This document shows, in pieces, positions 5,201 through 28,926 of a DNA stretch of 64,000 nt. Both the position numbers and the translations under genes were made by a program. The DNA is taken from positions 25,146 to 89,145 of the forward strand of contig MEUZ01000007.1 of the NCBI GenBank assembly GCA_001772615.1, in the 5' to 3' direction. Source of the stretch: a candidate division WWE3 bacterium RIFCSPHIGHO2_01_FULL_40_23 (lineage in GTDB: Bacteria > Patescibacteriota > WWE3 > UBA101185 > 2-01-FULL-41-18). Positions within the stretch are counted from its first letter, which is position 1. Each line of letters begins with the position of its first letter. The notes under the pieces were generated by a model. That model had not been told where the DNA came from. It searched no databases and saw only the letters and a program-made list of their open reading frames with translations.

Positions 5201-5526
5201 CTACAACTCCTATAGGCGGGGCAACCTTGACACCAACTCCTACACCCACGGCGTCAAACACATCGACTCCGTCGCAGACGCCAACACTGACCCCCACAAG
5301 CACGCCCTCGCCAACGGCGACACCCTGTCAGTGGGGCAGCAGCTGGAAGTGTGCCACCCCAACGGCATCAAAGACTTTCACGCCAACTGCAACCGGAACG
5401 GCGGGCAGCACTACCACGTCTACGGCGACCCCGTCGCAGACGCCAACGCTCACACCTACTGTGTTGCCTACGGCTCAGACAAATCCAAACACACATTGGA
5501 TCTTTCTGCCGTTTGTAATAAAGTAG
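2242..5526 (+). CDS. large secreted multidomain protein: signal peptide, subtilisin-like S8 serine peptidase, PQQ-like beta-propeller repeats, Thr/Pro-rich low-complexity tail
   Basis: N-term MRKLIVFLTVVSLLLGTYGISDA. Asp-His-Ser triad motifs DTGV, HGTHVASIAAG, GTSMATPYASGAAAY. Repeated YxxxxxTGxxxW motifs (YALNAYTGDVIWQF, YAVDTATGNRMWK, LLDLQTGEII). C-terminal TPTxTPT-rich ~130 aa. Confidence 0.8.
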   Translation: MRKLIVFLTVVSLLLGTYGISDAGIKGAPNPPGFVGATVNGKNCEVLVSTSADKTVWALNPDLAGEEVQNCEIKIKKARGEQLAVETANRFVPGELLVKFTRGSNRQGNLDVIKGNGANVLKEIDPGNGLFHVSVAKGQERAIAKTLLTNPNVEYAEPNFLTHSFSTPSWGQEAIGAPQVWGIYDCGNAGIAVLDTGVAKNHPELQNVEAGWDFVNDDPDASDDEGHGTHVASIAAGATVGVCRNALVIPYKVLNSEGSGTYADITAAIVSATLNSRVKVLNLSLGGSNSSDTMREALNQAANAGKLIFVAAGNDLGEGPSYPAAYTSTIAINAFGTNFVLPVWSARFKGAEYRSLSAPGVGILGANYTGGLVKYSGTSMATPYASGAAAYLLSINPNLTAEEVKSLLFNSAVKLGDEKEYGHGALNLANAVKMTTGVNLNVLPLEWNTQSWPSLLTIGEETSILSSLKDPDGNVVSATALITTPIGSVLAPMSFDSTLKMWRADYMPLALGSYSATVISVSDGISVTSGFGYQATFNVVSTTLPSGWEMHGRLPQGGSYVDFNVDVSSVEQIYSQWNDISASTDQGVATHLGRSLVPEKVRVVGSCPFGEFGVQWAFDTLSGIYYSYYGVYETAKELDCLDGIGIFGNHGAIGGQLFAVDQGSNHYNGWDARLHSYDPVSGRHNWTIHTEYHADGAVRISEDGLRLYIAGGPYDPLWSVSSVTGERIWSFFPNSGSVMDSEPVEKDGKVYVKVSGSSLSINKLYALNAYTGDVIWQFNPDRGFYGRSAPTLSPDGQTVVVCDGSFNMYAVDTATGNRMWKTALGGTNSSFCESVPAVTEEYVLIYTGSGVGGDTNNYLHLLDLQTGEIIVTRVVVDYGSVVASPAVSGDLVFLTDYRGKIRAYLLPTLGLVWEDVVDPYNISSWQTSVAIGEDENGKYAIVSASGNNGFFKAWKFRERVEQSTPPTLTPIPTNTPTVTRTPSPTRTTTPIGGATLTPTPTPTASNTSTPSQTPTLTPTSTPSPTATPCQWGSSWKCATPTASKTFTPTATGTAGSTTTSTATPSQTPTLTPTVLPTAQTNPNTHWIFLPFVIK

Positions 5527-10223: not shown

Positions 10224-12788
10224 CTACTCTCCCCTACTCCCAAGCACAACTTCACCTTCTATTTTACCGTCAAATGAAGGCCCTTCCTGCCTTTTTAAAG
10301 GCAAAGAACCTTGATCCCCCGTAACACTGCCCTCTTTCACACGGTTTTCCTCGGCAATTGCCATACCAAGGTCAAACTTTCTTTCAACCCACTGCCTAAT
10401 CCTTTCCTCAACATACTGACGGTCTTGCCCGTAGGTTTCCCTGCTTAACTCCTTTGCCTTTGCCCCATTATTAGTTAAATCAGTAATCCTTGGCATAGAT
10501 AAAGCCGAAAACGGCTTTGAGGTTTGACCTTCAATCATGAGCTTCAAATACATATGCTGCCTTTCAAGGGATATAAGATCATTTTCATCAAAAACCGGTG
10601 CGAATTCCTTTGCTAAAATCTCCGCGTCGGGTGCTCCAACGGCGAAAGAAATAATGGTTCCAACGTTTCCGAAAACCGCATTTAAAATTTCTTCAGGAAG
10701 CTGAAGCGTATATTGATGGGTCAGATGAAGACTTAGCCTGTATTTTCTTGCTTCCGAAAGAATAGACTCAAAACCTCCCGAAGCAAAGTTTTGAAATTCA
10801 TCAACAAAAAGATAAAAATCCCGTCTTTCGGCTTCAGGTATCCTCGCCCTCTGCAAAGCCACAAACTGCATTCTTGAAACAAGAAGTGATCCAAGAAGAT
10901 TCGCATTATCCTCACCTATTTTTCCAATTGATAAATTTATAAGAAAGATTTTTCCCGTGTTCATTATTTCATCAATCCTAACGGTTGATTTAGCTCTGCC
11001 TAAAATATTCCTGATGGTGGATGAAGAAAGAAATCTTCCAATCTTATTTTGGATAGGCGCTACAGCCTCTGTTAAAAGCTTTTGATTTCCTTTCATTTCT
11101 TTAAACTCTTTTTCCCAGAAATCTTTAATAACCGGATCCTTCACGTAATAAGTTATAAATTTTCTATAGTTGTCATCCATAAGAAGCCTTGTCAAACCAA
11201 GAAGCGTTGTACCCTCAACTTCAAGAAGAGTTAAAATACAAATATTTAAAAGGTATTCAAGCCTTGGTCCCCATGAAAATCCAAAATGCTGTTTTATTGC
11301 GGAGACAATTCCCGAAGCCATAAGGTTTTTCTGATCGGGATCCAAAACCTCAAGCATGTTCAGCGCGGGCGGTCTCTCCGAATCCGAAGGGTCAAAATAA
11401 ACAACGTCCTTCACCCTGTCATCAGGTATTGCCTCCAAAAGCTCGTCAATTAAAGTTCCGTGCGGATCCAAAACCCCAACTCCCTTTCCGTTTCTCATAT
11501 CCTGAATAATCATATTTCTGAAAAGCTGGGATTTTCCTGATCCTGTTTTCCCGATAGCATAAACGTGCCTTCTTCTATCTTCATCCTTAATTCCGAACTT
11601 AACTTCTTTATTTCTATAAGTTGTTATCCCAAACAAAGTGCTTCCTTCAGTGGGGATGTTTAACGGTGGCTCGCTTCTTTTCGCATATGACCAGGAAATA
11701 AGAGGTGTTTCTACCCCAGCCGCAGGCAAATGATATATTGACCCAAGCTCTTCAGTGTTAAATATATAACTCCCATCTTCTGAAAACTTTCTCAATCTGT
11801 ATGCATCAAAAAATTCACGGGAGTCATCATAATCTCCGGAAGCTATAAAACTGTTAAGATTTGCGGTTGAGAATTGTTTAAGAGACGCGATAACTGATCT
11901 TAATCTTAACTTCGCAACTTCAGTTGAATCAGCAATCGCAAGGACTCTGATAACACACTCGAAGCCCATTTTCGTAAGTTTGTTTTCAATTGCTTTTATT
12001 TCAAGCTCTTGGCCTGGAGACAATCTTGGAGGTAATGCGGCCGCGGTCCTGGCCGGAAACGCGGTAACCTCGGGCGGTGTTGAAATTCTTTTGATAACAT
12101 TAAAGAAGAGCTCCGACAGCTCCTTGCCTAAAGTTGAAACCAAACTACCGCCGGCTCTTTTAATAGTACCCTCTCTCACATCCGTCACATATTTGTAACC
12201 TTCTTCCTGCCAGACATCGGGAATAGGCCTTACCAAAAGTTGAAGCCACACCTGCTCATCCTCTTTTACCTCGGAAAGAGCGGATGTGATGGCCGATATC
12301 GGATCAACCTCAAAATCCTTAAAAGTCTTTATAGGAAAATAATAGTCTTTTGATAGCCTAACATCGGTTCCTAAAACAACTTTTCCTGTCCTATCAACAG
12401 ATTCAATATAATCTGGCACCTCAAAAATAACAGCGCGTGGATACTGTGCATAAATCTGACTTTCTACATAAGAATGAATGCTTTTTGGGACTACAGCGTA
12501 AAATTTAATACCTTTTGGGGAGGAAATTATTTCAAAAGAAAAATGCTCTTGTTCTTTAGGAGTTACTTTTAAAAGCCCGTGCAGAGATGCAAACATGTGC
12601 TCAGAAGCTATCGGGGCTGTCTGAAGATCAATATGCTCCACATCAAGCTCTTTAGGAACCTTAATCTCCAAAAAAACATTCTCAAATGTTTCGGTGTACC
12701 CACCCAAGCTTTTTCTGCGCAAAGATCTATATGCAAAAATTGTTGCGAACAAAACGATAATTGAAGGTAATAAAATATTTAATGGCAT
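10224..12788 (-). CDS. membrane-anchored P-loop ATPase of the VirD4/TraG/TraD type IV coupling protein (DUF87/HerA-FtsK-like) kind
   Basis: N-terminal TM; Walker A GKTGSGKS; Walker B-like YLFVDEFQNF; 854 aa. Confidence 0.6.
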   Translation of the reverse strand: MPLNILLPSIIVLFATIFAYRSLRRKSLGGYTETFENVFLEIKVPKELDVEHIDLQTAPIASEHMFASLHGLLKVTPKEQEHFSFEIISSPKGIKFYAVVPKSIHSYVESQIYAQYPRAVIFEVPDYIESVDRTGKVVLGTDVRLSKDYYFPIKTFKDFEVDPISAITSALSEVKEDEQVWLQLLVRPIPDVWQEEGYKYVTDVREGTIKRAGGSLVSTLGKELSELFFNVIKRISTPPEVTAFPARTAAALPPRLSPGQELEIKAIENKLTKMGFECVIRVLAIADSTEVAKLRLRSVIASLKQFSTANLNSFIASGDYDDSREFFDAYRLRKFSEDGSYIFNTEELGSIYHLPAAGVETPLISWSYAKRSEPPLNIPTEGSTLFGITTYRNKEVKFGIKDEDRRRHVYAIGKTGSGKSQLFRNMIIQDMRNGKGVGVLDPHGTLIDELLEAIPDDRVKDVVYFDPSDSERPPALNMLEVLDPDQKNLMASGIVSAIKQHFGFSWGPRLEYLLNICILTLLEVEGTTLLGLTRLLMDDNYRKFITYYVKDPVIKDFWEKEFKEMKGNQKLLTEAVAPIQNKIGRFLSSSTIRNILGRAKSTVRIDEIMNTGKIFLINLSIGKIGEDNANLLGSLLVSRMQFVALQRARIPEAERRDFYLFVDEFQNFASGGFESILSEARKYRLSLHLTHQYTLQLPEEILNAVFGNVGTIISFAVGAPDAEILAKEFAPVFDENDLISLERQHMYLKLMIEGQTSKPFSALSMPRITDLTNNGAKAKELSRETYGQDRQYVEERIRQWVERKFDLGMAIAEENRVKEGSVTGDQGSLPLKRQEGPSFDGKIEGEVVLGSRGE

Positions 12789-15773: not shown

Positions 15774-16469
15774 TTATCTTCCAATTTCAAACTGTTTGGG
15801 CAACTTGGATTCAAAAGATACAGGGGCACCACCGTTTGGGTGTTTAAATTCTATTCTACCGGCATGCAACATGAGTCTCTTAAAGCGCTTAATGTTTTCA
15901 TTATAAATACGCGCCGGCGCGTAAAGCGGATCCGAAACTACGGGAAAACCTGCTGCGGCGAGGTGGACTCTTATCTGGTGCGTCCTTCCTGTGTGAGGAT
16001 TTACTTTCAAAAGCGTATAAATGTGATCGTCCAAGCTTTTTTCTTTAACCTTTTCAAACTCCGTATATGCTTCTTTTCCTTCTTTGTGCACGGAAAATCT
16101 CATCCGGTTCCTTGGATTTCTCCCAATAGGGGCGTCAACATTAAATTTATCCTCCCCTACTCTTCCATTCACCAAAGCAAAATAAAACTTTTTCACTTTT
16201 CTTTTCTTAAATTGATTTCGCAAAGATTTTAATGACCTCTCATTTTTCGCGATTATTAAAACACCCGAAGTTTCTTTATCAAGCCTATGCACAATGCCCA
16301 TCCTTTCAAGACCTTCTTCAATTCCAAAAATCCCACGGTTTTCCTCCAAAAGCCCTTCTAAGGTGTTATTTTTATCTTTTTGGGTTTCTGACCTGTCTAC
16401 AACCAGACCTGAAGGTTTATCAAAAACGAGGATATCATTATCCTCATACAGAACCGGAAATTTGATCAT
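15774..16469 (-). CDS. RluA-family pseudouridine synthase
   Basis: HRLDKETSGVLIIAKN catalytic Asp motif. Confidence 0.8.
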   Translation of the reverse strand: MIKFPVLYEDNDILVFDKPSGLVVDRSETQKDKNNTLEGLLEENRGIFGIEEGLERMGIVHRLDKETSGVLIIAKNERSLKSLRNQFKKRKVKKFYFALVNGRVGEDKFNVDAPIGRNPRNRMRFSVHKEGKEAYTEFEKVKEKSLDDHIYTLLKVNPHTGRTHQIRVHLAAAGFPVVSDPLYAPARIYNENIKRFKRLMLHAGRIEFKHPNGGAPVSFESKLPKQFEIGR

Positions 16470-16845
16470 TCTGAACCTCTTCTAAAATCCTTCTCACCGT
16501 AGCTGCAACATCCCCAGGGTTAATCTCCGATTTAACCAGATAGCCCGAGGCGCCAAGGTTGTACCCTTCTTTAATAATTGAATCTCTTCCAAGATTTGTT
16601 AAAAGAACAACGGGTTTACCTTTTAAAATCACATCTTTTTTAATTCGTGAAAGTATTTCAAGACCGTCTCTTTTTGGAAGCATAATATCAAGAAGCATTA
16701 AATCCCATTTCCCCTCCATTGCTTTCACTAAACCGTCTTCCCCATCAGAAGACTCAATCACATCATAATCCGTTTTTAATACTTCCGAGTAAACTTCTCT
16801 AATATTTGCTTCGTCTTCAACAATAAGAATTACTTTTTTTCCCAT
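16444..16845 (-). CDS. stand-alone response regulator receiver (CheY-like)
   Basis: KVILIVEDE...DLMLLDIMLP...LLTNLG. Confidence 0.8.
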   Translation of the reverse strand: MGKKVILIVEDEANIREVYSEVLKTDYDVIESSDGEDGLVKAMEGKWDLMLLDIMLPKRDGLEILSRIKKDVILKGKPVVLLTNLGRDSIIKEGYNLGASGYLVKSEINPGDVAATVRRILEEVQNDQISGSV

Positions 16846-16901
16846 AACTTCTCTCCCTGCAAAACCCGCAGCCCAGGATGATTAAACTTATCAAAACTCC
16901 T

Positions 16902-17279
16902 TTATTTTAAGAATTGCCCGACCTCGGTAACTATCCTATCCGGGGTTATCTGGGACTTTATCAAATATCCATCCGCAGAAGTCTTAAAGGCCTCATTTAT
17001 GATTGACTCATGTCCAAGGTTTGTAAGAAGTATAACAGGTTTAAACTTGAGCCTGACATTTTCTTTAACTGCACGCAGTATATGAAGCCCGTCCTCACCG
17101 GGAAGCATAATATCAAGAAGCATTAAATCCCACTCATCATCAAATGCTCTTTTTAAGCCGTCAACCCCATCATTAGCCTCCAGTACACGATAACCCGCTT
17201 CCCTTAAAACTTCGGCGTAAACCATCCGTATTTCATCTTCATCCTCTATTAAAATTACTGTTTTCCCTTGATCCTCCAA
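16902..17279 (-). CDS. stand-alone response regulator receiver (CheY-like), paralog of 16444..16845
   Basis: TVILIEDEDEIRMVYAE...DLMLLDIMLPGEDG. Confidence 0.8.
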   Translation of the reverse strand: MEDQGKTVILIEDEDEIRMVYAEVLREAGYRVLEANDGVDGLKRAFDDEWDLMLLDIMLPGEDGLHILRAVKENVRLKFKPVILLTNLGHESIINEAFKTSADGYLIKSQITPDRIVTEVGQFLK

Positions 17280-17301
17280 GTAAATTCACCTCCTTAAACA
17301 C

Positions 17302-19320
17302 TTATACAGCCCTGACTGTGAAGTAAAATGTAGAGCCTTTGCCGGGCCCTTCGCTGTAAACCCCTACCTTGCCGCCCATAGCCTCCACAATTGATTTTAC
17401 AATATATAAACCTAAACCAGTACCCCCCGATTCCGCAGCCGTCACAAAAGAGTTATCAAGCCTGCCAAACTTGTGAAAAAGTTTTGGAAGGTCATCCTTT
17501 GATATCCCTTTTCCCGAATCGGCAATGGAAACCTTAACTTCCTTCCCGGAAGCTTCCGCAATGATATGAACAAAACCTGTGTCACAATATTTAAAAGCAT
17601 TACCTAAAAGATTAATAATGACTTCTCTTAATTTGTCTTCATCCGCCCTGACTTTTGGAAGATTGTTATCAATAAGAAGCTTAAAATCAAGACCCTTTTG
17701 CTCCGCCTTAATTCTAAAATCGGAAGCAATTTCAGCTAAAACAGAAGAGAGATCAACCTGCGTCGGATGAAGTTCAAGCTTGCCCTGCTCCATCCTTGAT
17801 ATATCAAGCATGTCATGAATAAGCTTTATCATTCTTTCGGTTCCGGCGTAAGCTTTTTCCACATACTCGCCTTGTTTTGGAGTAAGATCCCCTCCTTTTT
17901 TATTTTCAAGCATCCAAAGATAGTTTTTTATAATGGTCATGGGCGTTCTTAACTCGTGTGAAGCAATTGAAATAAACTCTTCTCTTGCCTTTTCGGCCTT
18001 AATCTCATCAGTAACATCCGAAATAATCACAACATAAACATTTAAATTCTTTTCAACAATGACTTTAGAAGCAGTTAAGTTAACATACCTCTCTCTTCCG
18101 TCAGGTCTTTTCAATACAAGATTGGTTAGTTTAGTTCCCGATTTAAACTCAAGCAGACTCTTTATTGAATCACCTGTAATCTTTTGATTTTTAGCGTCAA
18201 AAAGATTGACAATTTTACCAAAGAATTTTCCTGAAGCATCCTGCTCGGTAAAAGTTGTTAAACTTTGTGCGGCTCTGTTAAACAAAAGAATTTTTGTTTC
18301 GGCGTCACAAACAATTACAGCCTCCGTTATGTTATATAAAAGGGCTTCAGCCTTCCTCTTTTCCTGTATAAGTTCAAGATTTTTCTTATAAATCTGCTCG
18401 TTTATTCTTGATAAGAGTTGATCCCTTTCATGAAGCTTTATGTTTGCTTCGTGAAGCTCTTCCTCCCTTTGCCTTAAAAGCAAAGAAGGATTTGTAAAAA
18501 TCTCAAGCGGGACTACATCAATATTTAATGCATTTGTCCCAAGCGTGACTAGGGTGAGCATAGTAAGATACATAAAATCAACGAAGTTCCCATTATAAAA
18601 AGTACCGTAAGTTGTCTGATGGGCAAAAAACATGTCGGCAAGGAAAGAAACAACTAGACCAAACGAAAGCATTAAAACCGAAAATCTAATCTCCCCTTTT
18701 AGATGGGAGAGAGCTAGGGCGTCAACTATGAGAATTAGAATTAAGAGCACTACATCCCAAAGGGGATATGAGATGTCAAAAAAAAGTTTGATTACATTTG
18801 TGCTTAATTCAAATGTTGACCCTCTGGCAAAGACAAATAGCAGATAGTAAGAAATGGTTACAACAAGTATCGGGATAACGAGAATTATTACCCGTGTTAC
18901 TTTGTTCTTAAAAGAAATGCGAAGGCCTATTCCTCTTGCTAAATACATGATGCCAAATGACCAGAAAAACATGGTTAAAATGAAGGAAGCGTCCGCAAAA
19001 GAAGGATAAGGAACTTCTACATTTAAGATGAGGTTATAAAAGGACCAGGTGGACTCCCCTACTCCCCACGCAATAAGGCCTAAAGAGAAATAAACGACGG
19101 CTCTTATTAAGTTTTTGTTTGATTTATCGGTTCTGTTAATTAGCCTTATTAAGCTGTAAATACCACCGAAAAATGGAACCAAACCATAAAAGAAGGCAAA
19201 CCAGTAGTTTAAGGGGTCGTCTGTCGTACCTAAAATCTGGATATATGACCACCAAAAGGCAAGGAAGATGAAAGAGGCAATTACAAGTTTTGAGGCAAAA
19301 TTAAACTTAACATCTTTCAT
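17302..19320 (-). CDS. sensor histidine kinase: N-terminal ~7-8 TM module, PAS, HisKA, HATPase_c
   Basis: H-box ASHELRTPM; G-box GTGLGLYIVKSIVEAMGG; PAS-like region. N-terminal ~280 aa paralogous to the ORFs at 19658 and 22403. Confidence 0.85.
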   Translation of the reverse strand: MKDVKFNFASKLVIASFIFLAFWWSYIQILGTTDDPLNYWFAFFYGLVPFFGGIYSLIRLINRTDKSNKNLIRAVVYFSLGLIAWGVGESTWSFYNLILNVEVPYPSFADASFILTMFFWSFGIMYLARGIGLRISFKNKVTRVIILVIPILVVTISYYLLFVFARGSTFELSTNVIKLFFDISYPLWDVVLLILILIVDALALSHLKGEIRFSVLMLSFGLVVSFLADMFFAHQTTYGTFYNGNFVDFMYLTMLTLVTLGTNALNIDVVPLEIFTNPSLLLRQREEELHEANIKLHERDQLLSRINEQIYKKNLELIQEKRKAEALLYNITEAVIVCDAETKILLFNRAAQSLTTFTEQDASGKFFGKIVNLFDAKNQKITGDSIKSLLEFKSGTKLTNLVLKRPDGRERYVNLTASKVIVEKNLNVYVVIISDVTDEIKAEKAREEFISIASHELRTPMTIIKNYLWMLENKKGGDLTPKQGEYVEKAYAGTERMIKLIHDMLDISRMEQGKLELHPTQVDLSSVLAEIASDFRIKAEQKGLDFKLLIDNNLPKVRADEDKLREVIINLLGNAFKYCDTGFVHIIAEASGKEVKVSIADSGKGISKDDLPKLFHKFGRLDNSFVTAAESGGTGLGLYIVKSIVEAMGGKVGVYSEGPGKGSTFYFTVRAV

Positions 19321-19363
19321 TGGATTTATTCTAAGTTACTTTGTGGGTAAATTCTAGTAAAAA

Positions 19364-19648
19364 CTACCTTAAAATGTCAGGAAGAATCTCCTTCTGGTCC
19401 CCTACAACTGCCGAAACTGCCTCTCTGCAAACTTCCACCGATACTCTTCCGAATAACGAGGCGTACTGCTTTACAAGACCTTCAAGGACAGCTTTCCCAT
19501 CACCTGTAATCGTTGCTGTTTTGCCATCAGATGAAATATTAAGTCCGGGAACCTTATTCGCCTCCTCTATTGCTACAGGTCCTATGATCAACTCCTGCTG
19601 GGATATTATAGATTTTACAAGATTTTCAAACTGCCCATTCATACACAA
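19364..19648 (-). CDS. small hypothetical protein (~92 aa)
   Basis: ORF packed between the membrane-module paralog and the HK. Confidence 0.4.
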   Translation of the reverse strand: MCMNGQFENLVKSIISQQELIIGPVAIEEANKVPGLNISSDGKTATITGDGKAVLEGLVKQYASLFGRVSVEVCREAVSAVVGDQKEILPDILR

Positions 19649-19657
19649 ACGACTAAA

Positions 19658-20482
19658 TTAACTAGAGCCACTCCTAACACTATCGGAATACTTGACATCT
19701 AAAGCATTCGTGCCATAAGTTAATAAGAACATAGCAGAAGCGAATAATAAGTCTACAAATCCCCCATTGTAAAAAGTTTCAACAGTAGATTGATACGATA
19801 AACCCATATCAGCGAAGTAATTAACAACGAAACCCAAAAGTATTAAGGTTATTGGAAACTTGAACCTTCCACCAAGAAAACCAAATGAAAGACCGTAAAC
19901 CAGTAGTACTAGGGTTAATAGTATTACATCCCAAATAGGATAGAGCAAATCAAAAAACAATTTTAAATATTCAGAAGAAAGATCAATCGTAGAGTCCCTC
20001 GCAACAACGTAAAGCAAGTAATATGATGCGGATATTACTAAAAAAGGAACAACTAAGAGAAGAAGCTTACCTCTAACATTCCTCAAAGAGAACTTAATCC
20101 CAGTTGCTTTTGAAAGGTTTATAACACCCATAGACCATAGTGGCCAGCTCAAAATAAAACTAGCGTCAGCTAGCGATGGGTAAGGAATTTCTACGTTTAA
20201 TCCCAAAATGTAATAAGACCATATCGTCTCTCCAATTCCCCAAGTTATCAAACCTAATGAAAGATAGAGAACTGCGCTGCCCATTGCACTCTTAAAAGAG
20301 CCCCATTTTCTTGATAGAAATAACCCATTAATACCCCCAAATAGAGGAACAAGACCGTAGGCAAATACAAACCAGTAATTGACGGGAGAATCGGTTGTTC
20401 TCAAAAACTGAATATACAACCACCAAATAACCAAAAGAATATAAGAAGCAAGAAGAAGCTTAGTTGCTTTACTCTCAATCAC
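19658..20482 (-). CDS. stand-alone multi-TM membrane module, paralog of the HK N-terminal domain
   Basis: Shares WW..YIQ, NYWF.F.YGLVP.FGG, NVE(I/V)PYPS(L/F)ADASFIL, TFYNG.FVD motifs with the HK N-terminus. Confidence 0.7.
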   Translation of the reverse strand: MIESKATKLLLASYILLVIWWLYIQFLRTTDSPVNYWFVFAYGLVPLFGGINGLFLSRKWGSFKSAMGSAVLYLSLGLITWGIGETIWSYYILGLNVEIPYPSLADASFILSWPLWSMGVINLSKATGIKFSLRNVRGKLLLLVVPFLVISASYYLLYVVARDSTIDLSSEYLKLFFDLLYPIWDVILLTLVLLVYGLSFGFLGGRFKFPITLILLGFVVNYFADMGLSYQSTVETFYNGGFVDLLFASAMFLLTYGTNALDVKYSDSVRSGSS

Positions 20483-21290
20483 TTTTTTTGAAACCTGAGG
20501 CTAAAATTATACTTTCGTATCCAATCTCCTTATGCTCAGGTACTTTCTGTACCATTATATTCACAGTCGACATGTCAAAGTCAAGGTTAACAAACAAGTT
20601 ATTAAAATCACCCTCTCTAAGGTTCGCACAGGGAAAAAATCTTTTACCTACCTTATAATACCTACAATCCCTCAAGGCGGCGGTAACAAAAAAACCTCCT
20701 GGTTTTAATAAGGACAATATATTAACCATGTAGTCATGCCAAACCTCTCTGGAATTGGTTGCGCTATCGGCACAATAACATGAGAGCATAAAACTATAGT
20801 GACTCAAACCATTCCCTAATAACGGAGCTTTATTACTTGCATCGCATAATATGTATTTTGTGATCTTTTGCCTAGTCAGCTCCTCTCTTCTTTCTATATC
20901 AGAATCAGTTGGTTCTAGGTTACCTTCATACTTCAAGATAAGTTCTGTGAAAGGCTTCCAGTTATGCATCCCGACCTCTTTCTGCTGCCATTTCTTTATC
21001 TCCGAGAGATTGGTTTTCAGATAATCCGCAACATGTATTTCCGCCACGTAAGGGCTCAGAGGAAGAATATGATGAAGAGTCGGTCCCGCACCAAATTCCA
21101 ATGCTATAGGGTTCTCCCTAATCTTCTTAAATTCATCCACAAGGAATCTTAAAGTATATCTTTCATCTTGCTCAACATAACCATAATAGTCCCTCAGGTA
21201 ATCAGAGGGTGTCCACTTATCAAACCCTGACAGAGTCAACTTATTCGTCCTCAAAATGGGTGATATTTTACTTCTTAAAGGTTTAGACAT
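20475..21290 (-). CDS. NNMT/PNMT/TEMT-family SAM-dependent N-methyltransferase
   Basis: Matches human NNMT blocks: PSDYLRDYYGY (vs PRDYLEKYYKF), EFGAGPTLHHIL..HVADY...EIKKWQQKE (vs DIGSGPTIYQLL..VVTDY...ELEKWLKKE), LLKPGGFFVTAALRDCRYYKVGKRFF (vs [26 protein letters not shown]). Start at internal Met MSKPL (21290), 2 nt from upstream stop. Confidence 0.75.
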   Translation of the reverse strand: MSKPLRSKISPILRTNKLTLSGFDKWTPSDYLRDYYGYVEQDERYTLRFLVDEFKKIRENPIALEFGAGPTLHHILPLSPYVAEIHVADYLKTNLSEIKKWQQKEVGMHNWKPFTELILKYEGNLEPTDSDIERREELTRQKITKYILCDASNKAPLLGNGLSHYSFMLSCYCADSATNSREVWHDYMVNILSLLKPGGFFVTAALRDCRYYKVGKRFFPCANLREGDFNNLFVNLDFDMSTVNIMVQKVPEHKEIGYESIILASGFKKSD

Positions 21291-22389
21291 ACACAACCCC
21301 CGGTACAGCAAACCCGTTAAAGGGAGCGGCATAAGCTGTCGTATAAGCCGCACAGTTCATAATAAACACTTTATCTCCAATCTCAACACATCCAAGATCA
21401 GTGCTCTCCGAAACTACGTCAACGCTGTCACAAGACGGCCCTGCGATAGTCACAGCGTTCACATCCTTGTTTCCAAGTACCTTAAATTCATATTTATATC
21501 CTTGGACCGTTTCCATCAGAGCGTTAAAAACTCCGGCATCAATATAAACCCATCTCTCTGAACCTCTTTTAGCAATGCCTACAACTGTGCTTACCATAAT
21601 ACCAGAGTCACCTATCAAACCTCTCCCAGGTTCGATTGACACTCTCAGAATCTTGGATCTGTCAAAATATTTATCCAAAGATCGAGTGATAACCTTCCCA
21701 ATCTCCCTCATTGACGGAACATTTAAAGTTTGCCTAATTGGCAAACCGCCACCTAGACTTAGGAAACCTAACTGTGTGCGTTTTCCAAAATTCTGAAACC
21801 AAAACTCAGAGCTTAATTTTATAGCGCTCTCCCAGCTACTCTTATCGCGACACTGTGATCCCACGTGAAACGTTAACCCATAGACAATAAGTTTCCTTTC
21901 GTTACAATAAGAAATTAACTCTTTTGCCTCCCGAACAGTTACTCCGAATTTCTTTGTTAATGGCCAGTCACTACCTTTATTCTCTACTTCCAATCTCAGC
22001 ACAAGCTTGGCACCTGGGAAATATCTTAATACCTTATCAACTTCATCAAATGAATCGAAAGCAAGGATGTTTATATCTTCATTTCTAAGTACCCTTATGA
22101 AAGAGGGAGTTTTAATAGTGTGCATGCATATAATTTTTTTTGAGGATACACCCATTTTCTTAAGCACTTTCAATTCACCCTCAGATGCAATCTCAAAGCC
22201 TGATCCTTCTCGATCAAGAATTCTAACTATCTCCGAATCGTGATTAGCTTTCAAGGCGTAGTATACCTCCATCCCGGGCAAAGCCGTGCTAAGAGTTTTA
22301 AACTTCTTACTTATGCTTCTAATATCAATTGCTAAAAAAGGGGTTTCCTCCGTTTTAGACAAACTTCTCAGTGTTTTGGTTATGCGCAT
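21283..22389 (-). CDS. Orn/Lys/Arg/DAP decarboxylase, fold-type III PLP (eukaryotic ODC-like)
   Basis: VYYALKANHD (PLP-Lys), GFEIASEGE, GGGLP, IEPGRGLIG, AGPSCDSVD (catalytic Cys), AAYTTAYAAPFNGF. Confidence 0.8.
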   Translation of the reverse strand: MRITKTLRSLSKTEETPFLAIDIRSISKKFKTLSTALPGMEVYYALKANHDSEIVRILDREGSGFEIASEGELKVLKKMGVSSKKIICMHTIKTPSFIRVLRNEDINILAFDSFDEVDKVLRYFPGAKLVLRLEVENKGSDWPLTKKFGVTVREAKELISYCNERKLIVYGLTFHVGSQCRDKSSWESAIKLSSEFWFQNFGKRTQLGFLSLGGGLPIRQTLNVPSMREIGKVITRSLDKYFDRSKILRVSIEPGRGLIGDSGIMVSTVVGIAKRGSERWVYIDAGVFNALMETVQGYKYEFKVLGNKDVNAVTIAGPSCDSVDVVSESTDLGCVEIGDKVFIMNCAAYTTAYAAPFNGFAVPGVVYV

Positions 22390-22402
22390 GGATCTCCTAA
22401 AT

Positions 22403-23368
22403 TTATAGGAATGATATCACAGAAATAATTAGACAAAAACCTGGAAAAATATATGAGAAGAAATTATCACTCTCTATAACATTAAGACAGAACTCCCTTA
22501 ATGTTTGGATTCTGTAAACATAATTAACTCCATTGAATCTCTCTTCCGTGCTGGCCAAGGGAAACCAATAATCAACGGTTTCACAAATTCCGAGAAAAAG
22601 TAGAAATGCGTAGCTAACATAAAAAAGATCCACATAACAACCATTAAAGTAAGTATTATTCATACTAGTATTAAAAAACAACAGATCTCCAATAAACAAA
22701 AATAAAAACGCTGAAGTTAAAAGAAACTTTGCTTTTTTATTTAAGTGGTCTACCAAATAGTTAGATGCAAATATAAATAAAGTTAGTATCAAAATTAAAA
22801 TCAGAATGTCCATTGTAACGTAATAATAGTTTAAAGTTAACCTCAAAGTTTCCAGCTCAAGAGGAGATTTTGAAAATTTAATAGCAGTCGTAAGTACAAC
22901 CGGGGAAACTGACACAAAAACACTTAATATTCTTAAGGTTCCAATTACGCAAAATTTTAACTTCTCGCTCTTAAAAAACTTGTTGGAAAGTAACTTTCCT
23001 AAGCCTATAAAAGTTGCGGTATAGCTAAAAGAATAAAATACATCAGCGTATGATGGGAAAGGCACCTCTATACTTAAGAAGATGTTATAGACAGACCACA
23101 CGACGTTACCTAAACCCAGTAGAAGCAATCCAACACCGAGCAGTACTAATGCAGTTTTTCGTACCTTATTATAGGTATAAACCTTTGAAGTCCTACTTAT
23201 ATGGTAGACAACCAAAAAAACAGCTAAGACCAAAAACAGGGCCCAAAAAAAACCGAACAGGCTGTTATTCAACCCTCCCCTACTCCCTGAAAGATAGAGG
23301 GAGAGCCACCAGACCAAAATGGCTAAGTACAAACCGGTAATAAAATTTATACTGTTTTTAATTGTCAT
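22403..23368 (-). CDS. stand-alone multi-TM membrane module, third paralog of the HK N-terminal domain
   Basis: Shares SIEVPFPSYADV and TYFNGCYVDLFY blocks with the other two copies. Confidence 0.65.
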   Translation of the reverse strand: MTIKNSINFITGLYLAILVWWLSLYLSGSRGGLNNSLFGFFWALFLVLAVFLVVYHISRTSKVYTYNKVRKTALVLLGVGLLLLGLGNVVWSVYNIFLSIEVPFPSYADVFYSFSYTATFIGLGKLLSNKFFKSEKLKFCVIGTLRILSVFVSVSPVVLTTAIKFSKSPLELETLRLTLNYYYVTMDILILILILTLFIFASNYLVDHLNKKAKFLLTSAFLFLFIGDLLFFNTSMNNTYFNGCYVDLFYVSYAFLLFLGICETVDYWFPLASTEERFNGVNYVYRIQTLREFCLNVIESDNFFSYIFPGFCLIISVISFL

Positions 23369-23726
23369 GGTCGGGCTAGGATTATAATTATCTTATACAT
23401 AATAATCATAGTTAATGCAACTCTCTTCGTACTCTCTAAAACAGCTTAAACACCCTACTAAACTCCAGAGTTCAAACGTCCTTACTTCTGCCACCCGCCG
23501 CCCGCCTGTTGGCGGATGGCGGAGTCACACAGGGACGGAATAATCGAGTAATTGAGACTCAAATCACATTCAAATACTTGCAATAACCTCACAACCATTG
23601 GCCTATAAATAAATACTATTAGAAGTAAAAACTCTTTACATTATAATAATCGGTATGATAATAATTAATACAACTAGAACAAAGGTTGCAACCACTCTAG
23701 TAAACCGTGCAAAAAGGAGAGATAAA

Positions 23727-23918
23727 ATGTGCGGACCTGATTTTTCCACCTATCCTTTCGCTGAAGATCCTCCCGATCAAACACCGGAGGAAATCGCGAA
23801 ACTGTTTGAGGAGTCCTCCGCCGAAGAACCCACAGAAGACGGTATCGATTGGACCAGCGAGGAAGAGAACGAAGGCTGTAGTCCATATCCCGACTTCCGA
23901 TGGGTTTATTATGACTAG
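23727..23918 (+). CDS. small highly acidic protein (64 aa) with aromatic-rich C-terminus (FRWVYYD)
   Basis: Strong RBS AAGGAGAG 8 nt upstream of ATG; GC-rich coding relative to genome. Confidence 0.5.
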   Translation: MCGPDFSTYPFAEDPPDQTPEEIAKLFEESSAEEPTEDGIDWTSEEENEGCSPYPDFRWVYYD

Positions 23919-23972
23919 TGGAAGGCCCCGCAAAAAAATCACGCCCTAAGGCACAGGAGGTGAGACAACAAA

Positions 23973-24155
23973 ATGTATATCGATCCGGAGGACGAAGAGG
24001 ATCATTCTGATGATGATCGGGATGACTGGAAGGACCGCTTCAACGAGGGATTAAGGTTTGCATCCCTGGCTGATGTAGAAGAGGTCGGGGGAGGCGGAAC
24101 GGACGATGAATGGGAAACCTATTACATCGCCGATCAGTACGCGAGGCAGGGCTAA
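23973..24155 (+). CDS. small highly acidic protein (60 aa) with aromatic-rich C-terminus (WETYYIADQY)
   Basis: RBS AGGAGGTGA upstream; GC-rich. Confidence 0.5.
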   Translation: MYIDPEDEEDHSDDDRDDWKDRFNEGLRFASLADVEEVGGGGTDDEWETYYIADQYARQG

Positions 24156-24222
24156 AGCCCGCAACTTGCCAGGTTGGAACCCTTCTCTAAAGATTGATGG
24201 GAGAAGGGTTCCAGCAAATATT

Positions 24223-25221
24223 ATGATGCCGTCTGCAGCTGAAGTCAAAGAAATATTACTCTTTGACACAATTAATGAGGACCAAAATATTGCTCACTTA
24301 ATGGAGCATTGCCTTGCCGCCCACATTCATATTAATAATCCTAAAGCTCACTCAAGCGGTGGCTTCCATGCGGGTACGAATCCGAAAGGAATGTACTTGA
24401 TCTTTGAAAAAGAGGATTTTGTCAAATTTGACACGTTTCCAGACCTTGCACCCTTTATAGACCATCAGAAAAAAAGGTTGTATTTGGAGAGCATAGAAAG
24501 CATCCTCGTAGGCTCAAAAATAGTTGAGATATACGTAAGGCAGAACTGCTTAACATATAAAGAGGTTCTTGACAGATTTGACAAGTTCCTCAAATTGGAT
24601 ACTGCTGCAATAATAAAATCTTTTAAAAAAATTTACGCTACTAAAATAAAAATAAGCTCTATCAGTCAAACTTTGAATTTTAAGCCTATAACAACGTCGC
24701 AAAAGCAAGTTCATAGTATAAAAGTTCCGAAGTTTCAGCCTCTGCTTGACATATTTGAAATCTCTATTATGCTTCCCATGACTTTGGAATCACTTGCCTA
24801 CTGCGAAGCAATAAAGCTTTTGGCTTCAATGAACTTTTCCCCGATCCTTGCCCAGAAAACACTATTACACACAAATAGCGGAGGTGCCTCCATGTCTGTG
24901 AACAGCCTCTTTATTACGTACTCGTATAAAACTCTTAAAGGAGACGGGGAAAATACTAAAAATGTCTTCTGGGATCTTATAAAAAACGCACGGCATCTGG
25001 ATATTTACGTCAGCATTTGGAAAGAGCGAGAGTCCGAAAAAGCAAGAAAGACTTGGGAAGAGAATATCTTAAGGAGGGAACATATTTTCTCACTATTAAG
25101 ATTTGGCCACATTCTTACAGAAAAAGAAATAAAAGAAGTGGACAGCCAAAAAATCGTTAAACTTCACCATGAGGTAATTTCAAACCCCAACAGGTTTGTT
25201 ATTGAGCTGACTGACTTCTAA
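24223..25221 (+). CDS. hypothetical protein with inverted zinc motif HxxEH (AHLMEHCLAAH), possibly a divergent M16-like subunit; start uncertain (24106 or 24223)
   Basis: HLMEH resembles the M16 HxxEH; no other M16 blocks confirmed. Confidence 0.4.
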   Translation: MMPSAAEVKEILLFDTINEDQNIAHLMEHCLAAHIHINNPKAHSSGGFHAGTNPKGMYLIFEKEDFVKFDTFPDLAPFIDHQKKRLYLESIESILVGSKIVEIYVRQNCLTYKEVLDRFDKFLKLDTAAIIKSFKKIYATKIKISSISQTLNFKPITTSQKQVHSIKVPKFQPLLDIFEISIMLPMTLESLAYCEAIKLLASMNFSPILAQKTLLHTNSGGASMSVNSLFITYSYKTLKGDGENTKNVFWDLIKNARHLDIYVSIWKERESEKARKTWEENILRREHIFSLLRFGHILTEKEIKEVDSQKIVKLHHEVISNPNRFVIELTDF

Positions 25222-25587
25222 AATCATTAAAATAATGCCTAAAGCCACAAAAAAATCGGCAATATTAAAAACCGAAAAGGAAAAGAAAGGTATAAAATCA
25301 ACCACTTTCCCCCCATAAAAAACCCGGTCAATCAAATTACTCACTCCCCCACCGATAACAAACCAGTAAGAAAAAGACTCACTCACATTCCTAAAAAAAT
25401 AAGCAAACACAAGAATAAGGCATAAAACAAGAAAAAGGTTAAAAAAAGAGCTCCAGTAAGACCCTGTCCCAAGCATAAAACCCATGTTAAAGCTCACAAT
25501 ATCAGGAAAAAGCCTTAAAATTAAAAATTTAGAAAGCCTGTCAATAAAAATAACAAAAAAGCAAAAATAAAAGGGATGAAACTTCAC
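25180..25587 (-). CDS. lspA: lipoprotein signal peptidase (signal peptidase II)
   Basis: VIGGGVSNLIDR, KVVDFI, FNIADFFVALG conserved LspA blocks. Confidence 0.8.
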   Translation of the reverse strand: MKFHPFYFCFFVIFIDRLSKFLILRLFPDIVSFNMGFMLGTGSYWSSFFNLFLVLCLILVFAYFFRNVSESFSYWFVIGGGVSNLIDRVFYGGKVVDFIPFFSFSVFNIADFFVALGIILMILEVSQLNNKPVGV

Positions 25588-25593
25588 AAGAAC

Positions 25594-26607
25594 TTACTCC
25601 TGCCGTGACTTCTCCGCACATTCCAAACACATAGTAGCCTGCGGAAAAGCTTTTAACCTTGCGGGATCAATCGGTTTGTGGCAAACTTCGCAAATTCCGT
25701 ACGTCCCTATGTTAATCTTTGCCAAGGCCTTTCTGATCTGAAGCCTCATTTCGGATATTGACTTTGACAAAATGCTTGTCATCTCATGGGATGTATCCTC
25801 AAAGGCCTCATCAGCCTCCTCATTGTTTAAAACGTCCCTCTCGGGAAGGTTATACGCATCTTCCTTTTTTAAAAGCGTTTCTTCTTTGGCAAGTTCTTTA
25901 TCTTTTCTTAACAAAAGATCCCTTATATTTTTAAGAAAATCCTTGGAAATAGGAGAAGCTAATTTCATTTTCCTGCCCTTTAATCTGTGGACTAATACTA
26001 CTAATCCAAGTGTAAACAATGCAGACAAAAATATCAAACTTTTCTTTTCAATAAAAAAGAGCCCGAGGATGAAGCTAACCAGCATCAGGCCAATCCCAAA
26101 AATCCCGCCGTAAACAAAGCCGTTTTTCCTTAAGTTTAAAAGAAGCACATGTATCAAAACCAAAAGCCCAAAAGCAATCAAAAACTCATACATATTTTTA
26201 ACAAGTACAAAATACAAAATAACAAAAGGAATAGCCGCCGATGCGGAAAGAGCAAAAACATCTGTAACACGCGGCATTGACCACTTTTTCCCTCTTACAA
26301 GAAGGTATCCTGACAAAACCAACCCCGCCCCTACTCCATTCAAGTCAACACCATAAGTCCAAAACCTTACCGTATGCATAAAAATATCAGCAGGAAAGGA
26401 AAATTTTTCCAAAGCGTAAACAAGCCTTCCTGAAAAAATAGCCAAAATTACACAAGATAAAACCAAATCAAAGACCTGCTCTTCTTCAAAACCTTCCTTT
26501 TTGGCCTCCCTCCAAATCACGTACATAAAAACAAAAAAGCCGAATATAAGAAAGAGACTTAGAGTATAAATTTGAATGGATCCTATTTGAAAATTTTGAG
26601 GTATCAT
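25594..26607 (-). CDS. membrane protein (Lgt-like N-terminal region, tentative) fused to C-terminal DksA/TraR C4 zinc finger
   Basis: C-terminus CEVCHKPIDPARLKAFPQATMCLEC fits the DksA/TraR pattern C-x2-C-x3-I-x3-R-x4-P-x4-C-x2-C exactly. ~6 TM N-terminal. Confidence 0.6.
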   Translation of the reverse strand: MIPQNFQIGSIQIYTLSLFLIFGFFVFMYVIWREAKKEGFEEEQVFDLVLSCVILAIFSGRLVYALEKFSFPADIFMHTVRFWTYGVDLNGVGAGLVLSGYLLVRGKKWSMPRVTDVFALSASAAIPFVILYFVLVKNMYEFLIAFGLLVLIHVLLLNLRKNGFVYGGIFGIGLMLVSFILGLFFIEKKSLIFLSALFTLGLVVLVHRLKGRKMKLASPISKDFLKNIRDLLLRKDKELAKEETLLKKEDAYNLPERDVLNNEEADEAFEDTSHEMTSILSKSISEMRLQIRKALAKINIGTYGICEVCHKPIDPARLKAFPQATMCLECAEKSRQE

Positions 26608-28523: not shown

Positions 28524-28655
28524 TTACTTCTTTCTCTCCTCCTCCTTGACTCTGGCTTTAACCAAAGCCTTTCTCCCAAGATCATAAAATCCCACCAGTA
28601 GAGCAATGGGAATCACAGCCAGTGCAACAAGAAGTAATAGAACGCTTATGGTCAT
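28524..28655 (-). CDS. small single-TM membrane protein (43 aa): MTISVLLLLVALAVIPIALLVGFYDLGRKALVKARVKEEERKK
   Basis: GGAGAG RBS 5 nt upstream of ATG; hydrophobic core then basic tail; not in ORF track (<60 aa). Confidence 0.45.
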   Translation of the reverse strand: MTISVLLLLVALAVIPIALLVGFYDLGRKALVKARVKEEERKK

Positions 28656-28840
28656 GAAACTCTCCTCTCGGAAGAATTGATATGAGAATTATACTACAAC
28701 TGCAACCAAAAACAAAGAGACTATAGGTTAAATAATATTTGACTCTCCAACTGCCCTTCTTCGCTAAAGCTACGAAGGGCACACCTCCCCTGCTCTCGTC
28801 TTCGTCGGGACTTGCCCTCCGAAGCCTCGGCGAAGGAGGG

Positions 28841-28926
28841 TGGTGCCGTGGGTGAGAGTCGAACTCACACGGGGTTGCCCCCAATGGTTTTTGAGACCAT
28901 CGCGTATGCCATTCCGCCACCACGGC
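28841..28926 (-). tRNA. tRNA-Leu (anticodon CAA), class II with long variable arm, genomically encoded CCA
   Basis: Minus-strand GCCGTGGTGGCGGAATGGCATACGCGATGGTCTCAAAAACCATTGGGGGCAACCCCGTGTGAGTTCGACTCTCACCCACGGCACCA: 7-bp acceptor, anticodon loop CTCAAAA, T-arm GAGTTCGACTCTC. Confidence 0.85.

Follow-up and report, generated by a model that had tools for sequence, protein, structure and literature searches.

We analysed a 64,000-nt stretch (the window) of contig MEUZ01000007.1, from the genome of a candidate division WWE3 bacterium (Patescibacteria), in which eight co-directional minus-strand genes at 16444-23368 place a predicted amine-forming enzyme pair beside a membrane sensor and a two-component system. 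In the order in which they are read, the genes encode a divergent paralog of the sensor module (module 3, 22403-23368, 321 aa), a pyridoxal phosphate (PLP)-dependent decarboxylase of the ornithine decarboxylase (ODC) fold (21283-22389, 368 aa), an S-adenosylmethionine (SAM)-dependent methyltransferase (MT) of the NNMT/PNMT/TEMT family (20475-21290, 271 aa), a free-standing eight-helix module that is the anchor of the conserved cassette (module 2, 19658-20482, 274 aa), a small soluble helical protein that we call p94 (19364-19642, 92 aa), a histidine kinase with module 1 at its N-terminus (module-PAS-kinase, 17302-19320, 672 aa), and two receivers (RR1, 16902-17279, 125 aa; RR2, 16444-16845, 133 aa). 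We propose that the enzymes of this cassette produce a cationic amine with a capped nitrogen and that this compound is perceived on the outer side of the membrane, with the signal passing from module to p94, from p94 to the kinase and from the kinase to the receivers. Judging from sequence, we regard this proposal as about evenly balanced between right and wrong.

A conserved sensor core beside interchangeable enzymes

Loci around homologs of module 2 were gathered from genomes and metagenomes and annotated with the window proteins as queries, which gave 94 loci; a single-sequence scan of the genome collection returned 8 loci, and a metagenome scan with an alignment gave far more. Gene order across these loci indicates that the conserved core is the free module, followed by p94 and then by a histidine kinase. 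A p94 homolog was adjacent to the free module in 76 of the 94 loci, most exceptions being truncated contigs, and a histidine kinase lay at most 1.2 kb downstream of the module in 23 of the 33 non-redundant loci that extended far enough in this direction. A run of decarboxylase, NNMT-type MT, module, p94 and kinase, in this order, recurred on contigs of the Roizmanbacteria, Saccharimonadales and WWE3 types, so that the three components singled out in a preliminary description of this DNA (NNMT-like MT, ODC-fold decarboxylase and membrane module) do co-occur in other Patescibacteria. That description had presented the eight genes as one self-contained cassette. Its coupling of enzymes to sensor stood. 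The eight genes together are not the conserved unit, this arrangement being specific to a WWE3 lineage: the full layout recurred only in locus L015 and in L047/48, the latter with a SET gene replacing the NNMT-type gene. These same loci were the only others to have module 3, the fusion of module, PAS and kinase, and a second receiver, which are additions of particular lineages.

Enzymes were counted with per-family hidden Markov models (HMMs) in a zone of 3 kb upstream of the module, in 39 non-redundant loci with at least 2.2 kb of upstream sequence. The window's own enzyme types alone accounted for 16 of the 39 loci, and further enzymes were recognised by clustering and identifying the other upstream genes. 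A decarboxylase was present in 25 loci; it was of the ODC fold in 11, a small AdoMetDC-like protein in 7, a pyruvoyl arginine decarboxylase (PvlArgDC; family match 2.4e-44) in 5 and an AAT-fold Orn/Lys/Arg decarboxylase (OKR_DC_1; about 1e-45 to 1e-50) in 2. AdoMetDC homologs have repeatedly turned into ornithine or arginine decarboxylases, including in genomes of the candidate phyla radiation (PMC10407285). An enzyme that modifies nitrogen lay upstream in 30 loci, in the form of an NNMT-type MT, a SET-domain protein (1.7e-15), a homolog of guanidinoacetate N-methyltransferase (GAMT; 6.8e-33 to PDB 3orh), a NodU/CmcH carbamoyltransferase or a GNAT. Either enzyme type was found in 34 of the 39 loci and both in 21. 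The other upstream genes encode EamA transporters, an aldehyde dehydrogenase, an aminotransferase and small membrane proteins.

The upstream zone held 55 such enzyme genes in 113 kb, compared with 4 in the other 371 kb of these loci, an enrichment of about 45-fold that is inflated because the families were noticed through their recurrence near the anchor. If enzyme and two-component genes had merely come to lie together by coincidence in a compact genome, the close spacing would need no further explanation: genes are tightly packed in Patescibacterial genomes and often abut or overlap, and the neighbouring gene for an RluA-type pseudouridine synthase overlaps RR2 too. Coincidence does not account for enzymes at so large a share of the loci, for their positional enrichment or for the non-homologous replacement of both enzyme types, and the outer flanking genes do vary between loci. 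We consider it extremely improbable.

The two enzyme steps were also found within single genes. An ODC-fold decarboxylase fused to a SET domain (539 aa) occurs in L003 (6285-7904, minus strand) and L004 (2641-4260, minus strand), and an AdoMetDC-like protein fused to a SET domain (333 aa) occurs in L009 (1560-2561, minus strand). Each of these genes lies divergently beside a module-p94 pair, and no such fusion was found as a characterised enzyme in the literature searched. By their domain make-up, the fusions appear to tie decarboxylation to methylation. Because unrelated enzymes of the same chemistry have repeatedly replaced one another at both steps, a single shared function is suggested, namely decarboxylation of a cationic amino acid and capping of a nitrogen, and we take the comparison of loci as strong evidence that this function is tied to the sensor core. 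The functional coupling of the enzyme pair to the sensory genes, which had been proposed in the preliminary description, is thus borne out by conserved synteny together with this repeated replacement.

The methyltransferases could be given a different role, in which they methylate the receptor, p94 or the kinase for adaptation, as CheR does on chemoreceptors, with the decarboxylases as unrelated neighbours. SET is classically a protein lysine methyltransferase domain, the PDB matches of the cassette SET proteins are mainly histone methyltransferases, and some loci have an MT without a decarboxylase. NNMT/PNMT/TEMT and GAMT, in contrast, are families of small-molecule enzymes. Two decarboxylase folds with no relation to each other are found fused to SET, members of four decarboxylase families take up the same place in the loci, and a carbamoyltransferase and a GNAT replace the MT in some lineages. 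Moreover, a SET-domain enzyme is known to act on a free amino acid: BurB is a methionine S-methyltransferase acting on free methionine (PMC12542666), and it was also found among the PDB matches of the cassette SET proteins. In view of these observations we hold protein methylation to be very unlikely.

Decarboxylase and methyltransferase of the window

The window decarboxylase carries both Pfam domains of the ODC-fold (group IV, alanine-racemase-fold) enzymes (Orn_Arg_deC_N, 1.7e-49; Orn_DAP_Arg_deC, 3.9e-14) and the PLP-lysine, HxGS, GGG, EPGR, CD and AYT motifs. All of its active-site residues are present (K47, H175, GGG213-215, E253/R256, D284, C320/D321 and Y349), among them D284 and D321, the ligands of the distal amine. 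Among solved structures, it stands closest to the Lys/Orn decarboxylase of Selenomonas (5gjm, 3.5e-53) and to human ODC (about 1e-46); in the PDB ranking, Lys/Orn decarboxylase and ODC stand above diaminopimelate decarboxylase and arginine decarboxylase, and the protein lies under the NCBIfam lysA cut-off (180 vs 298 bits). L-ornithine or L-lysine is the predicted substrate, with putrescine or cadaverine as the predicted product.

The MT matches the Pfam family NNMT_PNMT_TEMT (PF01234) at 3.3e-36 (125.3 bits vs a cut-off of 25), with SAM motif I (EFGAGP) and D89 intact, and its best PDB matches are NNMT (9e-26), INMT (2e-23) and PNMT (3e-13). The start at ATG 21290 fits both the lengths of homologs (257-265 aa) and the public record. 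The protein also exceeds the cut-off of the GntF model (NCBIfam NF041360, 108.5 vs 60 bits). GntF is an N-methyltransferase in guanitoxin biosynthesis (PMC10673588). We regard this equivalog name as an over-call for the window MT because other gnt-type enzymes of a guanitoxin (gntA-J) cluster are absent from the window, where the neighbours of the MT are the decarboxylase, the modules and the two-component genes. GntF and BurB do share families with the cassette MTs, and both have free amines or amino acids as substrates; they differ from the cassette in that no guanitoxin or dimethylsulfoniopropionate/malleicyprol genes lie nearby here, the partners being a sensor and decarboxylases for basic amino acids. 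Enzymes of the NNMT-like and SET-domain kinds may use free diamines as substrates; they and the decarboxylase-SET fusion proteins are candidates for new enzymology. The Pfam search of the window proteins upheld every domain assignment of the preliminary description, and neither the decarboxylase nor the MT fell in an unrelated family.

Small membrane proteins were observed by the enzyme genes in a number of loci. Families F4 (L002, L017, L025, L003, L008) and F10 (L023, L035, L051, L067, L078) have 110-130 aa and about four transmembrane (TM) segments, and F1, of about 190 aa, occurs in many loci. None of the three matched Pfam, and F4 and F10 also had no PDB sequence match. All three are candidate exporters of the amine product. 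An assignment of F4 and F10 to the SMR-type exporters was considered and rejected, sequence support being absent.

The membrane module as a sensor input domain

Modules 1, 2 and 3 are, by their sequences, true paralogs. Identity is 48% between modules 1 and 2 (phmmer 4e-83) and 23-29% between module 3 and the other two, and the paralog matches range from 1e-14 to 1e-82 in phmmer; the motifs WW, NYWF, EVPYPSxAD, YPxxD and FYNGxxVD are common to all three. The three modules and the small open reading frame (ORF) of p94 were unmatched in Pfam and NCBIfam. Most cassette proteins are named hypothetical in public records, including the protein of isolate RIFCSPHIGHO2_01_FULL_40_23 to which module 2 is 100% identical, and phmmer comparison among the window proteins found no second copies of cassette components elsewhere in the window. 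In module 3 the WGxGE motif is missing, and the protein is extended at its C-terminus by a part that includes one more TM segment. Counterparts of module 3 in L015 (4524-5474), L047 (5355-6332) and L048 lie directly upstream of the decarboxylase and share with it the C-terminal motif YLIQxPY..Q.SLN, the members being 30-33% identical to one another. Module 3 thus appears from these alignments to be a distinct and fast-evolving subtype, always directly upstream of the decarboxylase, which might serve as an additional receptor or in export.

An AlphaFold2 model of the module has eight helices, with a mean confidence (pLDDT) of 91. Both termini are predicted to be cytoplasmic because they are fused to signalling domains, and the charge of the loops agrees with this placement (K+R of 9.9 in inner loops vs 1.75 in outer loops). 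On the predicted outer half lie the near-invariant acidic residues E98, D106, D178, D185, D225 and D244, together with many conserved aromatic residues, a make-up that would suit the binding of a cationic amine.

The module belongs to a large family, with 5,163 cluster representatives (50% identity) at E <=1e-3 and 1,775 at E <=1e-10. It ranges over WWE3, Roizmanbacteria, Doudnabacteria, Parcubacteria/Paceibacterota and Saccharimonadales, with distant relatives in Dormibacteraeota, Chloroflexota, Acidimicrobiia and one Udaeobacter-labelled contig. Its fusion partners are diverse. The module is joined to PAS- or GAF-kinases in the window and in L047, L050, L013 and L014, and to GGDEF in P0222; it forms the C-terminus of NB-ARC STAND NTPases of about 690-775 aa in L083 (3387-5711), L091 (7398-9695), P0299 and P0305; in P0270 (806 aa) a TrmB winged-helix domain is followed by two module copies; and in P0284 (487 aa) a HisKA_7TM domain and then a module stand side by side. 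Because the module is joined to several different signalling output domains, we assign it from these architectures as a sensor input domain, which outside Patescibacteria would feed kinases, a cyclic di-GMP cyclase, STAND NTPases and a DNA-binding domain. That a sensing module exists both free and fused to a kinase had been noted for the window, where module 2 is free and module 1 is part of the kinase, and the fusions elsewhere extend this pattern. A separate observation concerns the Dormibacteraeota locus L096 (6001-8459), in which a gene for an FAD amine oxidase starts 15 bp after a free distant relative of the module; this is the sole amine-related neighbour seen outside Patescibacteria.

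A transporter would be another use for such a protein. In that case the module would carry the cationic product, or act as a signalling transporter for it, with p94 regulating transport and the kinase reading transport activity. The helices do bear conserved acidic residues, a need for three receptors would not readily explain three module copies per operon, module 3 holds the slot that the small four-TM proteins F4 and F10 occupy upstream of the decarboxylase in other loci, and other exporters are absent from the window. On the opposite side, no transporter family matches the module by sequence, so that an objection anticipated in the preliminary description did not materialise; the fusions to kinase, GGDEF, STAND NTPase and winged-helix domains follow the pattern of a sensor input; and several loci have separate EamA transporters. 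Taking both sides together, we consider a transporter unlikely.

Two named membrane families were considered for the module and rejected. MASE3 (PF17159) was prompted by a partial NCBIfam match of the kinase (MASE3_PAS_HK, 178 bits, far under the cut-off of 560), and modules 1-3 were unmatched by it at E <=10. HisKA_7TM (PF16927) was prompted by UniRef, where the label 'Histidine kinase N-terminal 7TM region' is given to module 3. The current Pfam model leaves module 3 unmatched, and hhalign of the module profile against the HisKA_7TM domain of P0284 gave 0.2% probability. The Pfam models of both families were also unmatched by 53 module relatives at E <=1; distant non-Patescibacterial relatives gave partial-profile MASE3 matches of 21-28 bits, compared with a gathering score of 31. 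Like the module, MASE3 and HisKA_7TM are multi-helix membrane domains, N-terminal in histidine kinases and diguanylate cyclases, with ligands unassigned. Unlike the module, neither family has known members that stand free and are accompanied by a p94-like protein.

p94, the kinase and the receivers

The protein between module 2 and the kinase had been listed in the preliminary description as a 94-aa ORF without a role. The ORF is real. It opens at TTG 19648, and p94 counted from ATG 19642, as in the public record, has 92 aa; it proved to be the most constant partner of the module. p94 is soluble and helical, its model including a short hairpin (pLDDT 90.6), and has the strongly conserved motifs IIGPVA and LFGRxSVEVCREA. 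Pfam and fold searches gave no family or fold match. In L025, in L036 and in 17 of the best 150 family representatives, p94 is fused to the C-terminus of the module. Because p94 holds a constant position after the module and can be fused to its cytoplasmic C-terminus, the simplest reading of these sequences is that it acts as the cytoplasmic adaptor of the receptor.

The window kinase comprises module 1 (about aa 1-285, nt 18466-19320), a coiled coil, PAS (325-438), HisKA (445-513; 1.7e-18) and HATPase_c (560-670; 1.7e-25), all three of these domains being Pfam matches. Its H-box holds the motif SHELRTP with His455. RR1 (Response_reg 8.5e-20) and RR2 (4.3e-20) are paralogs of one another (1e-38), with the motif DLMLLD(I) and phospho-acceptor aspartates at Asp56 and Asp53, respectively. 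The genes thus have the components of a two-component system, with an H-box histidine in HisKA, a HATPase_c domain and receivers with a phospho-acceptor aspartate. An ortholog-like module-PAS-kinase occurs in L047. Where the module is free, its partner kinase is devoid of TM segments and starts with a coiled coil (ELYKKNxEL) and a GAF-like region, and the same ELYKKNxEL motif follows module 1 in the fused kinase of the window. The system therefore exists in two forms, one with module, p94 and soluble kinase and one with a fused module-PAS/GAF-kinase. If a split and a fused form of the same parts occur, then the module can be taken as the input of the kinase.

Predicted outward-facing residues vary with the neighbouring enzymes

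In a neighbour-joining tree, the anchor modules group by the class of the adjacent enzymes. We defined a class-discriminating column of the alignment as one that is conserved within each of five classes and differs among at least three of them. Ten such columns lie in the predicted outer half of the module and one in the inner half, compared with 70:90 for all variable columns, an outer-half bias with an odds ratio of 14.8 (Fisher p = 0.0012). Position 85, in the WGxGE motif of helix 3, varies with the class of the neighbouring enzyme. It is E beside ODC-fold decarboxylase and NNMT, Q beside ODC-fold decarboxylase and SET or beside OKR_DC_1, M beside AdoMetDC-like proteins, T beside PvlArgDC and carbamoyltransferase, and S beside GAMT-like enzymes. 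In the window, residue 85 is E in modules 1 and 2 and N in module 3. Shared ancestry can explain the clustering by class and less easily explains the bias towards the outer face, and we regard this pattern in the alignment as suggestive, not decisive. It leads to a specificity hypothesis in which residue 85 and nine other outward-facing positions would follow the class of the neighbouring enzyme.

These results bear on the possibility that the cassette serves amine homeostasis or envelope chemistry. The modified polyamine would then contribute to charge balance, the envelope or the stress response, and the module-p94-kinase chain would monitor the cell's own or host-derived amines and adjust physiology accordingly. 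On this view the amine would be a managed metabolite and carry no message from cell to cell. Such a role agrees with the best PDB match of the decarboxylase, the Selenomonas Lys/Orn decarboxylase, which we take to be an enzyme that makes cadaverine for peptidoglycan. The adjacency statistics fit a metabolite sensor equally well, the EamA transporters, aldehyde dehydrogenase and aminotransferase of some loci look metabolic, and an amine oxidase gene follows the free module in L096. The cassette, on the other hand, is without a DNA-binding regulator through which the enzymes could receive feedback, its receivers being single-domain proteins, and the predicted binding face is extracellular. Varied modification (methyl, carbamoyl, acetyl and guanidino-methyl), matched by changes at a receptor residue, is what one would expect of a recognition code more than of a bulk supply of polyamines. 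We view a role in homeostasis as a serious alternative that is nonetheless somewhat unlikely.

A proposed route from amine synthesis to kinase output

For the making and sensing of a capped amine, we propose the following sequence. The ODC-fold decarboxylase would turn a basic amino acid, most likely ornithine or lysine, into a diamine, and the translationally coupled NNMT-type MT would methylate an amino group of it, giving a small, more hydrophobic cationic amine; this synthesis is inferred because of family membership and intact active sites. The product would then reach the outer face of the membrane. There the eight-helix module would act as sensor input, a step that is partly shown, and its acidic, aromatic outer half would form a cation-binding pocket. 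Ligand binding would be relayed to the histidine kinase through p94, docked at the cytoplasmic C-terminus of the module, as adjacency and the fusions suggest. Finally, as expected for proteins of these families, the kinase would phosphorylate the two single-domain receivers, which would act on their target by protein-protein contact. Since the same sensor core stands beside different pairs of decarboxylase and modifier, different lineages would make and sense different amine derivatives.

Several observations weigh against this proposal. The inflation of the positional enrichment is one of them, and 5 of the 39 loci have none of these enzymes. In the Chloroflexota, Dormibacteraeota and Acidimicrobiia relatives examined, no decarboxylase or MT lies beside the module, so the link to amine enzymes would characterise the Patescibacterial module-p94 clade, not the family at large. 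The decarboxylase may do no more than supply polyamines to a cell with a reduced genome. For the SET and AdoMetDC-like classes the product could be a sulfonium compound formed by S-methylation, sulfur being the atom that BurB and the TEMT members of PF01234 methylate. No exporter was identified in the window, and RR1 and RR2 are without output domains. The binding 'pocket' is drawn only from helix positions. In a Foldseek search with the module, seven-TM receptors gave a best E-value of 0.016, which is not significant, with a TM-score of about 0.5 and 4-13% identity, and the resemblance appears generic; G-protein-coupled receptors and microbial rhodopsins have seven helices compared with the eight of the module, and the output of the former is a G protein in place of a histidine kinase. 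Nothing in these comparisons points to shared ancestry. The enzyme classes are also clades of the module tree, and the co-variation may partly reflect vertical inheritance of whole loci. Lastly, as regards a shared transcript, the promoter scan of the window gave 28 sites vs 26 expected, which is at the level of chance.

A broader extension of the proposal would be that Patescibacteria hold a lineage-wide system of chemical communication without a described counterpart, in which each lineage has its own capped amine with a cognate eight-helix receptor, p94 and a soluble kinase. We put this forward only tentatively and consider it doubtful. The signals in that case may be an N-methylated diamine, a carbamoylated or guanidino-methylated agmatine and possibly a sulfonium amine. 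If this extension were true, receptor specificity would be set by few outward-facing residues, notably position 85, in a kind of 'dialect' code. These episymbiotic bacteria would then have their first known pairing of a dedicated signal synthase with its receptor, through which symbionts could communicate with one another or with the host. The Patescibacteria are a very large and mostly uncultured bacterial group with tiny genomes and few regulatory systems. A sensor core that is kept while the amine-forming and capping enzymes are swapped suggests an investment in making and sensing specific small cationic molecules.

Relation to known signalling systems

A two-component system with a dedicated small-molecule synthase is an already known design, as exemplified by the quorum-sensing pair CqsA/CqsS of Vibrio, the system of the signal CAI-1. 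There, the gene of a PLP-dependent enzyme lies beside that of a histidine kinase with a polytopic membrane domain, which is thought to bind the product in its TM region, and output runs through receiver domains. The type of synthase differs: the hydroxyketone made by CqsA, an acyl-CoA transferase, is hydrophobic, and the decarboxylase and MT of the cassette would give a cationic amine. The membrane domain of CqsS is unrelated to the module; CqsA/CqsS also has no p94-like partner, no split into receptor and soluble kinase and no family-wide swapping of synthases. In the three-component system UhpC-UhpB, the sensor is likewise a separate membrane protein, which signals to the kinase of the adjacent gene. 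UhpB is membrane-bound and UhpC is a transporter homolog, whereas the kinase of the cassette is soluble in most genomes, with the gene of a small helical adaptor in between.

Polyamines as signals are known from NspS-MbaA in Vibrio cholerae (PMC8079147) and from putrescine quorum sensing in Dickeya (PMC10715095, PMC12239582). As proposed for the cassette, di- or polyamines made by amino-acid decarboxylases act in these systems as extracellular cues that control behaviour. Unlike the cassette, they sense ordinary unmodified polyamines through periplasmic binding proteins or importers, their genes form no synthase-receptor cassette, and their sensing parts are unrelated to the module or p94. The preliminary description had not recognised the arrangement as a described system, and in the searchable full-text literature, recent papers on Patescibacteria included, neither the module nor p94 nor the cassette was found. 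What is new here is the family of sensors, the adaptor, the layout with receptor and soluble kinase as separate proteins, the proposed class of signal, and the swapping of synthase modules across the family.

Gene spacing, transcription and flanking genes

All eight ORFs were found at the positions given in the preliminary description, and the close spacing reported there was confirmed, with junctions between -8 and +56 nt. Module 3 and the decarboxylase are separated by 13 nt, the decarboxylase overlaps the MT by 8 nt and the MT overlaps module 2 by 8 nt; the further gaps are 15 nt from module 2 to p94 (counted from ATG 19642), 43 nt from p94 to the kinase, 22 nt from the kinase to RR1 and 56 nt from RR1 to RR2. 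The non-coding stretch upstream of module 3 (23369-23654, minus strand) is a likely promoter region. It contains one weak sigma-70-like match (23415-23387, score 9/12), a candidate only, since the whole scan is at chance level. Promoter and terminator scans were dropped as markers of the operon boundaries, both being at chance level. A terminator-like hairpin at 16426-16447 (minus strand) directly follows the stop codon of RR2 and lies inside the 5' coding part of the next gene, that of the RluA-type pseudouridine synthase; it has probably arisen by chance. With the RluA-type gene overlapping RR2 by 26 nt and the hairpin lying within that gene, neither feature marks a 3' end for the operon.

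The cassette is flanked by unrelated housekeeping genes, for the pseudouridine synthase, a Kef-type antiporter, Lgt and LspA. Upstream of module 3, a gap of 737 nt contains two very acidic small ORFs (87 and 60 aa), which may be genuine genes of small size or what is left of a disrupted one. After them comes a 371-aa ORF without a Pfam match; the coordinates recorded for these features are 23655-24155 and 24106-25221, both on the plus strand. Further on, at 25594-26607 (minus strand), an unusual fusion joins the N-terminal part of Lgt (prolipoprotein diacylglyceryl transferase) to a C-terminal DksA/TraR C4 zinc finger, beside signal peptidase II (25180-25587).

Elsewhere in the window, a 1094-aa protein encoded at 2242-5526 (plus strand) combines a subtilase (Peptidase_S8) with a PQQ-like beta-propeller. 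The G+C fraction of this stretch is 0.50-0.52, compared with about 0.39 for most of the window, and the protein may be a horizontally acquired surface protease. At 10224-12788 (minus strand) lies the gene of an 854-aa protein with signatures of TrwB/VirD4-type coupling proteins and HerA-like ATPases, which possibly belongs to a type IV secretion or DNA-transfer apparatus. The sole RNA gene detected in the window is a tRNA-Leu(CAA) at 28841-28926 (minus strand), and the 113-aa ORF that overlaps it (28582-28923) is almost certainly spurious.

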